Assembly: GCA_016699795.1 (NCBI GenBank)
Contig: CP065011.1
Span: 1,011,449-1,075,448 of the forward strand
DNA: 64,000 bases
Reading direction: 5' to 3'
DNA from: Candidatus Moraniibacteriota bacterium
Lineage (GTDB): Bacteria; Patescibacteriota; Minisyncoccia; Moranbacterales; GCA-2747515
The notes beneath the pieces were generated by a model. The model made no database searches. It saw only the letters and a list, made by a program, of their open reading frames with translations, and was not told where the DNA came from. The position numbers and the translations under genes are program-made. Of this stretch, positions 565 through 28,193 are shown in pieces. The stretch's first letter is position 1, and every line of letters starts with the position of its first letter.

Positions 565-1212
565 ATGAAACAACTCTCGACCCGAACCATATCAATTATT
601 TCTCTTATAGCCATTGCCTTTCTAGCATTAGGAGTCTTTGCAATGCAGAAAATTTACAATACCCCACTTCCTGTTGTGGAGAATGAGAAAACAGAGACTC
701 AAGAAACTCAAGAAAAGAATGAAGAAACTATTACTGAAACTATTGATACATCGAATTGGAAAACTTTTCGAAATGAAGAATACGGATTCGAAATGCAAAT
801 TCCTAGTGATTGGAATATTGAAAAAATAGGACAATCAAAAATGTTTATGATTAAAAGAGCGCCTATTGATAGTAATAATAAATTATATTTTACTATTGCT
901 CTAATGGATTCAAGTAAAGATGTACAATCTTGGTATGCAGATAATATAGAAAATCCAAGAAATCAATATAATGATAATTATGACATTATTGAAGAGAATA
1001 AAAAAATAGGAAATAATTTTTTCTATTATTTAAAGAAAATTTCCGACGACCTTGAATATTGGTACATTGATCACGCATATCTCATATCCAATGAAAATAG
1101 AGTATTCATGATAAAATTCCGAGAAAAAGAAGGTCCAGAATATTGGCAATACGATTATTCTTCCTCTCTTCCAATATTCGAAGCTTTCGTGAGTTCATTG
1201 AGGTTTCTTTAG
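565..1212 (+). CDS. MKQLSTR-family signal-anchored secreted/membrane protein, copy 1
   Basis: N-terminus MKQLSTRTISIISLIAIAFLALGVFAMQKIYNTPLPVVENE (hydrophobic anchor) is shared by ORFs at 17119, 26327 and 27474. The acidic linker is followed by a variable domain. Confidence 0.75.
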   Translation: MKQLSTRTISIISLIAIAFLALGVFAMQKIYNTPLPVVENEKTETQETQEKNEETITETIDTSNWKTFRNEEYGFEMQIPSDWNIEKIGQSKMFMIKRAPIDSNNKLYFTIALMDSSKDVQSWYADNIENPRNQYNDNYDIIEENKKIGNNFFYYLKKISDDLEYWYIDHAYLISNENRVFMIKFREKEGPEYWQYDYSSSLPIFEAFVSSLRFL

Positions 1213-1317
1213 AAGACTATGACAAGGTTCATCTTATGAGGATTTTTATAGAAATAGAGATTCTCTCAGGTGAACCAAAATGGTTCATTAATAAATCACA
1301 CAAGAGGAGTTATAGTC

Positions 1318-3237
1318 ATGCAACGACTATCTTTTGCTGTTTTTCTTATGCTGTTTACTTTTGGAGTATTCGGTGCGTATCCATATTCAACTTGTCCTAT
1401 AGGACAGTGGACATTGGAGGGAGATAACTTTCAGAAAGTATACGACAAAAATGGGAATTACCTTCCCAGTGAGAGTTATTGGGCTGATATTTACAAATTT
1501 TCCCAGTGCAACTGCACTTCCTATGTCGCCTATAAGATTAATGAATGGGCAGACTCCCATTCACCAACAAATCCACTTTTTTGCAATAGTTTTTCCATTT
1601 TTGGAGATCCGGAAACGGATAGATGGGGTGATGCCCACCAGTGGAAAAATGCTGTTGGGGATCGTATTCCTGGTGTGTTCAGTCGGTATCCACTTCTTCC
1701 AGAAGTGAATGAAGAAGAAGGTATTAATGATTGGAATTCTTATCCATGGAAGAATGTATGGAAGTTGTCCAATCATACCATCTCTACAGTACAGATTGAT
1801 CATGCAATTGCATGGTGGGATTCTTCGGTTGGAGGAACATTTGGACATGTGGCCTGGGTGGAATCTGTTGCTAAAGATGGAAAAACAGTGACGGTTTCGG
1901 AATATAACTGGCCAACATCAGATAATGGTAATGAGTGGCTCACATATGGCACGCGAATTCTTTCACCGTCTGACCATGGTTATCCCGATGGCTTTCTCTA
2001 TATTCTTACGGATGAGCTTGTAGAGTGTGATCTCACTGGATTATGCAGCAATGAATGTACAGGTGATGGTGGAGGTGGTGGTGGTAACATCAATCCAACT
2101 CCCACAGACCCTGTCAATCTTACCCAAGATACTGACATTCTTGGTGCTGACGGCAATGAACTCTATGCTGGACGTGACTCAATCCTTTCTGGAATGAAAG
2201 TAAAAGTCCGCGTTGCAGTGCAAGCTGAAGGAGGGGATGCAGGAAACTGGAAAACGAGAAACGATGCCGACACTATAGACATCGCTTACTCCGTAAGTTC
2301 CAATGATGGTCCTTGGACTCAGTTTGATACTGGGTACATTACCATTTCTAAACTTGATGAGGGACAAACTATCACGGAAACGAAGGAATACACTATTCCA
2401 AATGGCATCTCTTCGATTGCATTTCGCACAGAAACCGATTATCGAGATGAAGTCGAAGAATATGATGAAGGAGATAATACCAGTCGCGTAGAACGATTTG
2501 AGATTTCAAATCTCAAACCTGACTACAGCATCACTGATGTTTTCTTCTCTGATCCCAGTACAGGAGCCATATACCGAAATGGTGCAATACTCTTAGAAGA
2601 TAGAGAGTGGTATCCCTATTGTGAGATAATGAGCACAGGAGAAATCAATGCTCCTATCAACGTAGAAGTTTCTCACCGTATGGATGGAACAGAAAGAGAT
2701 ACTGATACGCTAGGAATAGATGATATTTCTTTGGGACAAACATATCGTGAAGTCGTCTGGAGCAAATGGAAACTGGGAAATACAGGAACACGTACCTATA
2801 CGTGCTGTGTAGATTCCAAAGGTTGGCTTCCAGAACTCAATGAGAGCAATAATTGCAAGAGTGCACTCTTTACGATAGTTCCATGGAAACCTAGTATCAC
2901 CATCACTGATCTCTGGGTAGACTATGATGGAAAAGTAGTTCGTAATGGTGGAACAGGGAGCAAAGGGAAACGTTATCATCCTAATGTTACCTTCACCAAT
3001 ACGGGAAACAAAACAATGTCGTGTGGTGCTGAAGCAAAGTACTACATTAATTCTAACTCCTATAGAGATAGAGACGGGATCGATCCTCTTTCCGTGAATC
3101 AATCCGGACATGAGAGAGTCGAGAACGACAATATCAAACTTGGAGATGGAGGATGGAGATCATATCGTGTTACTATCCAATCTAGCTGTGGAGAGTTTCC
3201 TACAGTGGAAAGGACGATGAGTTTTTATCTTCGATGA
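1318..3237 (+). CDS. secreted CHAP-domain peptidoglycan hydrolase fused to a CARDB-like C-terminal module
   Basis: The AGGAG RBS sits 9 nt before ATG 1318 and the signal peptide starts at MQRLSFAVFLML. CHAP catalytic signature: Cys in QCNCTSYVAYKI and His in GHVAWVESV. From a Gly6 linker (about nt 2084) to the stop, the sequence is about 99% nucleotide-identical to ORFs 18718-20022 and 29035-30339. CARDB-like motifs: EYDEGDNTSRVE and ELNESNNC. Confidence 0.75.
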   Translation: MQRLSFAVFLMLFTFGVFGAYPYSTCPIGQWTLEGDNFQKVYDKNGNYLPSESYWADIYKFSQCNCTSYVAYKINEWADSHSPTNPLFCNSFSIFGDPETDRWGDAHQWKNAVGDRIPGVFSRYPLLPEVNEEEGINDWNSYPWKNVWKLSNHTISTVQIDHAIAWWDSSVGGTFGHVAWVESVAKDGKTVTVSEYNWPTSDNGNEWLTYGTRILSPSDHGYPDGFLYILTDELVECDLTGLCSNECTGDGGGGGGNINPTPTDPVNLTQDTDILGADGNELYAGRDSILSGMKVKVRVAVQAEGGDAGNWKTRNDADTIDIAYSVSSNDGPWTQFDTGYITISKLDEGQTITETKEYTIPNGISSIAFRTETDYRDEVEEYDEGDNTSRVERFEISNLKPDYSITDVFFSDPSTGAIYRNGAILLEDREWYPYCEIMSTGEINAPINVEVSHRMDGTERDTDTLGIDDISLGQTYREVVWSKWKLGNTGTRTYTCCVDSKGWLPELNESNNCKSALFTIVPWKPSITITDLWVDYDGKVVRNGGTGSKGKRYHPNVTFTNTGNKTMSCGAEAKYYINSNSYRDRDGIDPLSVNQSGHERVENDNIKLGDGGWRSYRVTIQSSCGEFPTVERTMSFYLR

Positions 3238-3290
3238 TTCTCGAGAGACTTCCCGCAAGGACGCGGGAAATACTGAAATGAATGAAGATG

Positions 3291-3322
3291 AACCAGTTTT
3301 GAAAAAGGCTGGTTTTTTTTGT
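3291..3322 (+). terminator. Rho-independent terminator after the cassette (AACCAG...CTGGTT + T8); preceded by a second hairpin TTCCCGCaaggaCGCGGGAA at 3249-3270
   Basis: A perfect stem is followed by a T-run. The structure recurs at 20085-20111 and 30393-30428. Confidence 0.7.
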
Positions 3323-27022: not shown

Positions 27023-27127
27023 TAATTCATTTTCGGAATAATGCTCCAACCAAAGAGAAATCCTTCCCTTTGGTTGCCGGCAATGTTTCGGTATTCTGAC
27101 CTTTGACAAATAGAGGAGTCTATTCGA

Positions 27128-27316
27128 ATGAATATTCGATTGTTTCTCGTACTATGCTTTTTTACCACATCTTTCTCAGCATTCTCTGCTGAATCGATTC
27201 GTACGGTAACGGGATTCTATTATCCCATTGGAATGACAAAAGATACGATTGTAAAACAGGAAATACTTGATACGATAGCTAAGAATATTATTTTAAAGAA
27301 TAATTTTCCAGAGTAA
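27128..27316 (+). CDS. 62-aa ORF with its own signal peptide whose C-terminus duplicates the last 30 aa of ORF 27474-28193; a small secreted protein or a cassette remnant
   Basis: ..IGMTKDTIVKQEILDTIAKNIILKNNFPE* matches ..IGMTKDTVVKQEILDTIAKNIILKNNFPE* of the next gene. The same NNFPE*-plus-leader junction recurs at about 390-404. Confidence 0.35.
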   Translation: MNIRLFLVLCFFTTSFSAFSAESIRTVTGFYYPIGMTKDTIVKQEILDTIAKNIILKNNFPE

Positions 27317-27473
27317 ATCTTTCTTTGATTATCTCATTTGGATGTAATGGTTAGTTGATAGGCTACCGACGATGACCCATGGACTCAGTTTGACACTGGA
27401 TATATGACTATCGAAAAACTTGACATAAAGCCATATTTTAGGTATATTTTTTGTACATTATTTTAAATACATT

Positions 27474-28193
27474 ATGAAACAGCTTTCCACTCGAACTATA
27501 GCCATTATTTCCCTTATCGCCATTGCCATTTTGGCATTAGGAGTCTTTGCAATACAAAGAGCTTACAATACCCCACTTCCTGTTGTGGAGAATAAAGTTG
27601 AACAAAAAGAGAATCCGAAAACAAATGATAAAATCTTCATTGCCGATGTTGATATGAATATTGAAAATTGGCAAACGAAAGAAACGAAATTCTTTACGAT
27701 TAAATTTCCAAAAGAGTGGTATTGGTTGGAATCTGATTTTGAAAAGATAGGATATCATTCACAAGCAATCACCAATAATCCAAATTTTGATATAAACAAG
27801 TATCCTGACATTGGAATGTTTACTGGATATGATTATCCAATGATACTTAAAGAAAATAGTGAGGTTATTATAACGTTTGGAGGTTTTCCCACATCCAATT
27901 CTGGCACACCAAAGGATAGCTCTGATTATATTAAGAAATCCGTTTTAGATAAAAATTCTTCCGCTCAGTGCAAGGAAATTCAGATTACTAATAACAATGA
28001 TAGAAATGTAACTCTTTTTATTACCTGTTCTTTTATGGATATATATGGGTACAGCATAAAGAAGTATAGCGCTATTAATAACGAAATTTCTATTACAATA
28101 ACCATTGGAATGACAAAAGATACGGTTGTAAAACAGGAAATACTTGATACGATAGCTAAGAATATTATTTTAAAGAATAATTTTCCAGAGTAG
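27474..28193 (+). CDS. MKQLSTR-family signal-anchored protein, copy 3b
   Basis: N-terminal MKQLSTRTIAIISLIAIAILALGVFAIQRAYNTPLPVVENKVEQKENPKTNDKIF; shares a central block with ORF 17119. Confidence 0.75.
   Translation: MKQLSTRTIAIISLIAIAILALGVFAIQRAYNTPLPVVENKVEQKENPKTNDKIFIADVDMNIENWQTKETKFFTIKFPKEWYWLESDFEKIGYHSQAITNNPNFDINKYPDIGMFTGYDYPMILKENSEVIITFGGFPTSNSGTPKDSSDYIKKSVLDKNSSAQCKEIQITNNNDRNVTLFITCSFMDIYGYSIKKYSAINNEISITITIGMTKDTVVKQEILDTIAKNIILKNNFPE

Follow-up and report, generated by a model that had tools for sequence, protein, structure and literature searches.

The 64,000-nucleotide (nt) stretch of DNA analysed here, referred to as the window, comes from the complete metagenome-assembled genome (MAG; 1,186,598 bp) of a Candidatus Moraniibacteriota bacterium, a member of the candidate phyla radiation (CPR/Patescibacteria), and carries locus tags in the range IPN70_047xx–048xx. 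It holds a family of genes whose products begin with the residues MKQLSTR and consist of a signal anchor, an acidic linker and an ectodomain. Each complete cassette is an operon headed by such a gene and containing a Sec-secreted peptidoglycan hydrolase (CHAP or M23) together with a CARDB module. Comparison of the cassettes with one another and with related loci shows that what is exchanged is a two-gene core, made up of the ectodomain from gene 1 and the catalytic domain from gene 2, with a constant arm on either side. We give about even credence to the reading that these cassettes are polymorphic enzyme/self-protection pairs, similar to bacteriolysin and immunity genes, in which the anchored protein would have the immunity role. 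A first-pass annotation of this stretch had described the family as a constant promoter, leader and anchor with shuffled ectodomains; it mentioned neither the CHAP, M23 and CARDB genes downstream nor the two-gene nature of the swapped unit.

The swapped unit spans two genes

Anchor genes are named here by their first position in the window. In cassette 1, gene 565 precedes a secreted CHAP1 enzyme fused to CARDB (1318–3237). In cassettes 2 and 3, genes 17119 and 27474 precede CHAP2-type enzymes (17963–18685 and 28304–29002) that are followed by CARDB as a separate secreted protein (18709–20022 and 29026–30339), with a single promoter-like site in front and a single terminator-like hairpin past the CARDB gene. 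Matches of the CHAP and M23 domains to their Pfam models exceeded the threshold in nearly all cases, so that a domain of plausible toxic activity, as expected of a polymorphic toxin, is present, and the catalytic Cys (GNCTWW) and His (GHVAFV) of CHAP2 align to the staphylococcal CHAP structures 2lrj and 2k3a. The signal peptides of the hydrolases were assigned by inspection. The enzyme of cassette 3 (CHAP3) is 68% identical to CHAP2 in amino acid (aa) sequence.

Sliding-identity profiles delimited the variable part of the cassettes. Between cassettes 2 and 3, identity was 75–87% in the 5′ arm, 42–47% in the C-terminal half of the ectodomain, 58–78% across CHAP and 97–100% in CARDB. Between cassettes 1 and 3, it was 83–96% up to ~715, the sequences were unalignable from there to 2050, and identity then rose to 99–100%; the segment 2092–3324 is 99% identical to 29194–30425 and 96% identical to 18877–20116. 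The variable core thus spans the ectodomain and the catalytic domain of the hydrolase. On one side it is bordered by a 5′ constant arm made up of promoter, anchor and linker, and on the other by a 3′ constant arm that is either a Cys-rich C-terminal domain or CARDB. The arrangement by which polymorphic toxins are recognised, with constant regions flanking a variable core and with recombination, orphans and remnants, was therefore found in this family. The mixing and matching of domains proposed in the first-pass annotation holds in the form of cassette swapping with clear recombination breakpoints, but whole ectodomains are exchanged and no fine mixing of sub-blocks was seen.

The Cys-rich C-terminal domain (~90 aa; ..GNY.W.P..SSC..WYG...CQWIYETLYP.EVSYNALFGNANACYQ) is a portable module. 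It is carried by the CHAP2-type enzymes (18454–18684 and 28777–29001) and is also present on an M23 enzyme of a related strain (28777–29001 against 3326–3550 of locus L023, 97% identity; L001–L026 denote related loci from other genomes and metagenomes). It had no Pfam match.

A constant putative signal anchor and promoter

The open reading frames at 565–1212, 17119–17838, 26327–27022 and 27474–28193 were confirmed as real, and there are five intact MKQLSTR genes in all, one of them extending past the left edge of the window. The common front end of about 40 residues claimed in the first pass was borne out: residues 1–41 (MKQLSTRTI.II.LIAIA.LALG.F..Q..YNTPLPVVE) show 83–88% pairwise identity among the four complete members, which from residue 75 to the end are only 17–35% identical. 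At the DNA level, the 5′ arms are 81–92% identical and identity beyond them falls to background; for 565, 26327 and 27474, the shared 5′ segment includes ~60–200 nt of non-coding DNA upstream. The sequence TTGAC(G/A)-17-TATATT occurs within the window only at 511, 17067, 26273 and 27420, that is, upstream of the four complete genes. A shared promoter had also been claimed, and this was found for all four, with the restriction that the whole promoter region is common to 565, 26327 and 27474 whereas 17119 has just the two hexamers in common. The leader does not appear to be a generic secretion signal either, since in the database search it was confined to this kind of protein and the other secreted proteins of the window have different leaders. 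That search returned 90 relatives, nearly all of 190–260 aa and nearly all from Moraniibacteriota-like metagenomes, and an alignment of the N-terminus alone gave at least eight related metagenome loci.

The leader consists of K/R followed by a hydrophobic helix of ~20 residues. No member has a Cys in residues 1–60 that could form a lipobox, and a lipoprotein identity was rejected for this reason; a type IV pilin-like leader was likewise rejected from the sequences. Most type-B relatives (see below) lack an AXA-type cleavage motif, and the proteins have conserved Cys pairs. Together, these features suggest that the signal anchor is not cleaved and that the domain is exposed outside the membrane. 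The acidic linker of the anchor proteins has 25–35 residues. N-termini cluster by genome, with 83–88% identity within the window and 50–69% between genomes, and ectodomains cluster by type, type C being 61% identical between genomes. The 5′ module is thus homogenised within genomes or, put the other way, cores move between arms, a pattern that indicates concerted evolution of the 5′ module.

Ectodomain types and their predicted fold

Type A ectodomains are found in 565 and in the gene that ends at 1–272, type B in 17119 and 27474, and type C in 26327; at least four more types occur in close relatives (relative proteins and their ectodomain types carry P-numbers). Genes 17119 and 27474, which had been thought to have merely a central block in common, are full-length type-B paralogs with 57% identity over residues 1–188. 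Type B is marked by the motif FVTDVD..V.HWQTKETEFFTIKFPKEWYW...NNPNF and by two invariant Cys. In more distant genomes it is carried on unrelated signal anchors, and it is rare, as ~45 clusters (50% identity) were found in a set of 1.84 billion representatives.

Ectodomains A and B both model as the PsbP/Mog1/Tsi3 fold, with a central antiparallel β-sheet and flanking helices that can be superimposed on PsbP or Mog1p, and A and B at least are thus very divergent versions of one fold and not unrelated modules. Profile–profile comparison of the ectodomains alone connected A with C at a probability of 95.8% over 60 residues, and it is through this comparison only that type C appears tied to type A. 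The A–B and B–C comparisons found in common only the W..T..F.IK.P..W strand motif, at a probability of about 3%, so it is the shared fold that supports a common ancestry of type B with A and C. Against PF18933 (PsbP_2), the type-A protein 565 scored 23.3 bits (E 7e-5), below the gathering threshold of 27 bits, and 17119, 26327 and 27474 gave no match, which leaves the window proteins outside that family; the relative P0041 carries the PF18933 annotation. Types B and C had no match in Pfam or NCBIfam, and NCBIfam and PADLOC returned nothing meaningful for the anchor proteins.

Pairing of ectodomain and hydrolase in related loci

Type B was followed by a CHAP2-type gene 100–130 nt downstream in all ten genome loci L001–L010 (Moraniibacteriota and Paceibacteria; L007 and L008 are apparently the same sequence) and also in L013, with CARDB after, or fused to, the CHAP2-type gene in L003 and L010. 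Type A leads to CHAP1–CARDB in the window and in L011. Type C leads to M23 in L012 and L021 and, with a P0019-type gene in between, in L018, and the C and P0019 types share one M23 subtype (L012, L018, L021 and L022). Another M23 subtype comes after the P0024 type (L013 and L015), M23 with the Cys-rich domain after the P0018 type (L023–L026), and a CHAP1-like gene after the LVWYE type (L013 and L019). Across the window and L001–L026, seven ectodomain types each have one hydrolase catalytic type, without conflict in ~25 pairs, orphans aside, and the two domains therefore co-vary. Some loci hold several such genes: in L013, CHAP, M23, CHAP–Ricin and M23–CARDB genes are interspersed with six MKQLSTR-type genes, each with a different ectodomain, and in L009, five anchored PsbP-like genes, three of which have promoter and 5′-untranslated sequence in common, surround a CHAP gene and an M23–CARDB gene.

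Given these pairs, it is improbable that the anchored proteins are variable surface proteins, such as adhesins or phage/host-recognition decoys, that diversify alone with hydrolase genes loosely linked to them. Such proteins would have exposed, fast-evolving ectodomains that are polymorphic between strains, as is predicted or seen here, and CARDB is an adhesion-related domain. However, the hydrolase catalytic domain changes jointly with the ectodomain in one recombination unit, and the same ectodomain–hydrolase type pairs are present in independent genomes. In addition, the window contains no silent cassettes. Antigenic variation from silent cassettes (pilE/pilS-type), one of the options named in the first-pass annotation, was rejected, because the four complete copies each have their own −35/−10 promoter-like site and start codon and the fragments are deletion scars that form no ordered donor array. 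The other option, effector/immunity diversification, fits.

Core replacement between close strains

Replacement of the core between close strains was seen directly in independent assemblies. Loci L023–L026 share with the window the upstream remnant, the promoter and the 5′ arm (84–91% identical and reaching codon 76; in L023, 91% identical to window 500–791), followed by a different core consisting of a P0018 ectodomain and an M23 catalytic domain, and then by a 3′ end that is 97% identical to the Cys-rich C-terminal domain of CHAP3. In L022, the type-B gene (94% identical to 27474) precedes a P0019-type gene and an intact M23–CARDB gene, in that order.

These observations bear on the most sceptical view of the family, in which it would be an ordinary set of paralogs whose N-terminus is kept by signal-sequence selection and whose mosaic is an artefact of metagenome assembly or polishing. 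The window does come from a MAG, and its three 1.2-kb CARDB copies, at 96–100% identity, provide the setting in which polishing can homogenise repeats. We nevertheless regard this view as very improbable. Conservation is as high in the upstream non-coding DNA, dead gene ends included, as in the coding 5′ end, so peptide selection cannot explain it. Contigs assembled independently from other samples and with other assemblers (SPAdes and MEGAHIT, judging by contig names) reproduce the arms, junctions and alternative cores, and the same organisation recurs in other genomes.

The surroundings of the cassettes differ as well. A NUDIX gene (97% identical to window 4707–5185) adjoins the type-B cassette directly in L022; in the window, the NUDIX gene is followed instead by a ~12-kb glycosylation gene cluster of low G+C content (5302–16929). 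This difference points to probable structural variation around the cassettes at strain level.

Orphan anchor genes and deletion scars

Orphan anchor genes or scars were found at 1–272, at 26327 with the scar at 27128, for type B in L022 and in the array of L009. The segment 1–272, which had been listed as a member or remnant, is no remnant: it belongs to an intact gene of 216 aa (IPN70_04710) that extends beyond the window and has its 3′ end here. The segment is 85.6% identical to 987–1249 at the nucleotide level. The segment 27128–27316 had been read as a duplicate of the end of 27474. Its last 27 aa indeed belong to a type-B gene. The first 35 codons, however, encode the signal peptide and opening residues of an M23 peptidase, so that the segment is a fusion scar. 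The stretch 27027–27231 (205 nt) is 99% identical to part of the intact M23–CARDB gene in L022, 27225–27343 is 92% identical to 28102–28220, and the scar junction lies at the microhomology CCATTGG. The M23 gene was thus lost by fusion at CCATTGG, which left the type-C gene 26327 as an orphan.

Upstream of this orphan, the segment 26049–26262 marks a segmental duplication from which the type-C cassette arose. Gene 15616–16929 has left three partial copies of its 3′ end scattered between the cassettes, at 21690–21991, 22327–22432 and 26049–26137, which point to repeated segmental duplication or insertion.

A structured RNA between anchor and hydrolase genes

A conserved structured RNA of ~105 nt lies between type-B and CHAP2 genes, at 17852–17961 and 28192–28301 of the window and in L001–L010 and L013. 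It contains the hairpins P1 (10 bp) and P2 (7 bp, GAAGCGG..CCGUUUC), which covary strongly, with compensatory changes in 12 of the 17 pairs. Pairing was 97% for P1 and 100% for P2, against 48–55% in slid controls for the whole structure. The two hairpins are followed by a UUUGACAA-type box and then by the Shine–Dalgarno (SD) sequence AAGAGGAG. The covariance model R1 matched 13 of 13 B–CHAP2 spacers at 65–102 bits and gave weak matches in spacers of other cassette types. An outer helix P0, formed by an anti-SD with the SD, and a helix P3 were just 73–77% paired, so they are not claimed. No Rfam family matched window 1–31000 at gathering thresholds, and a relaxed search returned only a chance-level small nucleolar RNA match of 16.8 bits.

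The anchor–hydrolase spacers of other types fold into long stable hairpins (1213–1317 and 27023–27127 in the window, L011 10571–10682, L012 10712–10835, L018, L019, L022 and L023), and in most of them a YUUUGACAA/UUUAACAA box precedes the SD by a few nt. In the spacer 1213–1317, the long hairpin is followed by a TTCATTAA box in place of the UUUGACAA/UUUAACAA of other spacers, and then by the SD AAGAGGAG. The spacer RNA is a candidate cis-regulator of the hydrolase gene and may set the ratio of partner to hydrolase.

Features of the window

The coordinates of the cassette features are collected in Table 1.

Table 1 Cassette genes, putative control elements, duplications and scars in the window.
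Feature	Position	Strand	Evidence and remarks
Type-A paralog 3′ end, IPN70_04710/QQS61156.1, 216 aa, intact	1..272	+	Open to the window edge, starts left of it; matches P0007; no hydrolase gene after it (orphan)
Degenerate type-B 3′ end (..KIAQNIVLKTGFPE*) and downstream spacer	302..429	+	70% nt identity to 28086–28215; translation
Promoter-like TTGACG-17-TATATT, cassette 1	511..539	+	Within shared 5′ arm 366–686, 89% identical to 27275–27593
MKQLSTR type-A gene IPN70_04715 (predicted signal anchor, acidic linker, modelled PsbP/Mog1-fold domain)	565..1212	+	
Structured spacer, anchor to hydrolase	1213..1317	+	Fold −34.6 kcal/mol; weak R1 match 1227–1313, 17.8 bits, E about 1
CHAP1–CARDB hydrolase IPN70_04720, 639 aa, secreted	1318..3237	+	Pfam CHAP, CARDB; variable CHAP1 ends near 2050; constant 3′ arm 2092–3324
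Promoter-like TTGACA-17-TATATT, cassette 2	17067..17095	+	
MKQLSTR type-B gene, variant B1, IPN70_04780	17119..17838	+	
Structured RNA (P1, P2, UUUAACAA box, SD) between type-B and CHAP2 genes	17852..17961	+	R1 93.5 bits; covariation
CHAP2 hydrolase, secreted, Cys-rich C-terminal domain, QQS61171.1	17963..18685	+	Pfam CHAP
Secreted CARDB IPN70_04790, constant 3′ arm of cassette 2	18709..20022	+	Pfam CARDB; 97–100% identical to copy 3; terminator-like hairpin 20084–20105
Duplicated 3′ end of membrane-protein gene 15616–16929 and spacer	26049..26262	+	16844–17276 versus 26049–26484, 87%; breakpoint visible in alignment
Promoter-like TTGACG-17-TATATT, type-C gene	26273..26301	+	
MKQLSTR type-C gene IPN70_04825, orphan here	26327..27022	+	Orthologs followed by M23 gene in L012, L021, L018
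Chimeric deletion scar IPN70_04830	27128..27316	+	M23 signal peptide/first residues (..AESIRTVTGFYYPIG) joined to last 27 aa of type-B gene
Promoter-like TTGACA-17-TATATT, cassette 3	27420..27448	+	
MKQLSTR type-B gene, variant B2, IPN70_04835, modelled PsbP/Mog1 fold	27474..28193	+	
Structured RNA, second copy, between type-B and CHAP2-type genes	28192..28301	+	R1 99.9 bits; fold z-score −3.7
CHAP3 (CHAP2-type hydrolase, secreted), QQS61182.1	28304..29002	+	Pfam CHAP; 28777–29001 97% identical to L023 3326–3550
Secreted CARDB IPN70_04845, constant 3′ arm of cassette 3	29026..30339	+	Terminator-like hairpin 30392–30417

Several other repeats and genes accompany the cassettes. A G+C-rich double-hairpin repeat of ~50 nt (CCCTTTGCCAAAAGGG..CTCCTAAGGGGGAG), which in appearance resembles repetitive extragenic palindromes (REP) or miniature inverted-repeat transposable elements (MITE), occurs in four copies (16262–16321, 16973–17020, 22869–22924, inverted, and 26179–26226), one of them in frame within the membrane-protein gene 15616–16929. 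Just past cassette 1, a ~165-nt repeat with 89% identity (3392–3559 and 4483–4644) flanks a 195-aa gene (3693–4280), and a repeat of 172 nt that includes a TTGACG promoter-like box of its own is present at 20155–20326 and 24554–24725. Between the cassettes lie the defence genes 23206–24453, 24700–25281 and 25289–25978, which correspond to a PDC-S01-type AAA ATPase (DUF4143 family) and an AbiEi/AbiEii pair. Further along the window, gene 59363–61348 on the minus strand encodes a large secreted protein in which an Ig-like repeat of 261 nt (87 aa) is perfectly duplicated in tandem at 59878–60399.

Self-protection or tethering

The cassettes read in order as a promoter, a signal-anchored extracytoplasmic protein of the PsbP/Mog1 fold, a structured spacer, a Sec-secreted hydrolase and a terminator, with the hydrolase composed of a CHAP or M23 catalytic domain and a constant Cys-rich C-terminal domain and/or a CARDB module. 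If they are enzyme/self-protection pairs, the hydrolase would be a secreted bacteriolysin used by the CPR bacterium against neighbouring or host cells, and the anchored ectodomain would bind and neutralise its cognate hydrolase at the producer's own surface, in a proportion set by the structured spacer RNA. Whatever the function, cores are duplicated, replaced and deleted through homologous recombination between the arms, with orphan anchor genes and scars left behind and the anchor homogenised within a genome.

The same layout could be produced by a different function. As the main rival reading, the anchored PsbP-like protein may be a cognate tether, scaffold or activator that holds the secreted hydrolase at the surface, either for controlled remodelling of the cell's own wall or for focused attack by an episymbiont on the host wall where the two cells touch. 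The hydrolases carry signal peptides yet lack an anchor themselves, the acidic linker could reach into the wall, and the PsbP/Mog1 fold includes chaperones encoded upstream of effectors (PA0094/EagT6 and SciW); co-variation and adjacency, for their part, are equally expected of any specific binding partner. We consider this alternative possible but rather unlikely, because anchor genes remain intact after loss of the hydrolase (26327 with scar 27128, 1–272 and type B in L022) and build arrays (L009), both of which are usual for immunity genes and would make no sense for a tether. The polymorphism at strain level and the location among defence genes also point to a conflict system and not to housekeeping. 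Immunity is favoured on these grounds, to which is added the similarity of the fold to that of known periplasmic immunity proteins.

Several findings weigh against an immunity role. The PsbP/Mog1 fold is a generic protein-binding scaffold that is also found in non-immunity proteins (PsbP, LpqN, DcrB and Eag chaperones), and the putative immunity gene comes first, which is a less common order than toxin-first. The C and P0019 ectodomains both precede the same M23 subtype, and the anchor gene ahead of one and the same M23 5′ end differs between L022 and the window, so that the pairing is not strictly one-to-one. A family member in L016 is followed by a CapA-like gene and no hydrolase. In cassettes 2 and 3, CARDB is a secreted protein in its own right and not part of the hydrolase, and the near-100% identity among the three CARDB copies was read from a MAG assembly, in which polishing may have inflated it in part. 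The uncleaved-anchor topology with the C-terminus outside is itself a prediction from sequence.

A broader proposal, which we put forward as speculative, is that the cassettes form the weapon set of an episymbiotic CPR bacterium. Sec-secreted, CARDB-targeted hydrolases would open the walls of hosts or competitors, and cognate signal-anchored PsbP-fold immunity proteins would neutralise them on the producer's surface. Cores made of halves of two genes would be exchanged between strains and would help to set the range of hosts or competitors, dosage would be controlled through an as yet undescribed structured leader RNA, and the whole would constitute a new class of polymorphic effector/immunity system that is independent of a secretion system.

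Relation to known systems

Among the pairs delivered by type VI secretion systems (T6SSs), Tse3–Tsi3, Tae–Tai and TplE–TplEi are alike in that the gene of a secreted wall or envelope enzyme adjoins that of a small extracytoplasmic partner, and in the occurrence of orphan partners. Here, by contrast, there is no T6SS but only Sec signal peptides, the partner gene lies upstream, and the bacterium is a CPR member with a Gram-positive-type envelope. The partner is signal-anchored, whereas theirs are periplasmic or lipoproteins, and the anchor proteins showed no detectable sequence similarity to the Tsi (including Tsi3), Tai and Tli immunity families.

The contact-dependent inhibition (CDI) system CdiA-CT/CdiI, together with Rhs and MafB, also has a core of toxin domain and partner beside a constant recombination arm, with tandem arrays, orphan modules, scars and strain-specific cores. 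The architecture in the present cassettes is inverted: the partner comes first with a constant 5′ promoter and anchor, and the toxin has its constant part at the C-terminus and its variable catalytic domain at the N-terminus, so that the core reaches from the 3′ portion of gene 1 into the 5′ portion of gene 2. Unlike those of CDI, Rhs and MafB, the proteins are also small and Sec-dependent.

Class III bacteriocins such as lysostaphin, zoocin A and enterolysin A resemble the cassettes in that a Sec-secreted M23/CHAP-type hydrolase with a C-terminal targeting module is encoded beside a self-protection gene (Lif, Zif). Their immunity, however, is a FemABX-type modification of the cross-bridge and not a binding protein, whereas the cassettes have a protein partner, and we know of no comparable modular swapping or multi-copy arrays described for them. 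Eag chaperones (DUF1795; PsbP/Mog1p/DcrB/LpqN fold group) are likewise encoded just upstream of effectors, but they are cytoplasmic, have no export signal and bind the transmembrane segments of effectors, whereas the ectodomains here are predicted to lie outside the membrane; the anchor proteins therefore do not fit the description of Eag chaperones. IseA (YoeB) of the monoderm Bacillus subtilis is similar to the anchor proteins as an extracytoplasmic inhibitor of DL-endopeptidases (NlpC/P60-type wall hydrolases). It is a single, non-polymorphic, stress-induced gene that forms no operon with its targets, and its fold differs from that of the anchor proteins.

In the literature on hydrolases, CHAP or immunity in CPR, Patescibacteria, Saccharibacteria or Moranbacteria, and on PsbP-like immunity, the pairing was not found described, and only the Tsi3 structure paper was relevant. 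By analogy, the cassettes would work like Tse/Tsi, Tae/Tai, CDI and Rhs but they belong to none of those families. They have no secretion apparatus dedicated to them and no homology to those families in sequence.

Implications for CPR biology

CPR/Patescibacteria make up a large part of bacterial diversity, and most are thought to live attached to other cells. To our knowledge, their genes for attack, attachment and self-protection are almost unknown. The locus offers a concrete and testable candidate, in which a small, easily expressed hydrolase is accompanied by an upstream partner of predicted PsbP fold, with natural cognate and non-cognate combinations and clear polymorphism at the population level. 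If the partner is an immunity protein, the principle of polymorphic effector and immunity pairs would apply to CPR bacteria as well, in a system that relies on Sec alone. The two genes would also define an inverted cassette architecture, families without a Pfam model (types B and C) would gain a function, and a new cis-regulatory RNA would be tied to the control of cell-wall hydrolases. If the partner is instead a tether or activator, the cassettes would still show how CPR cells position their wall-cutting enzymes.

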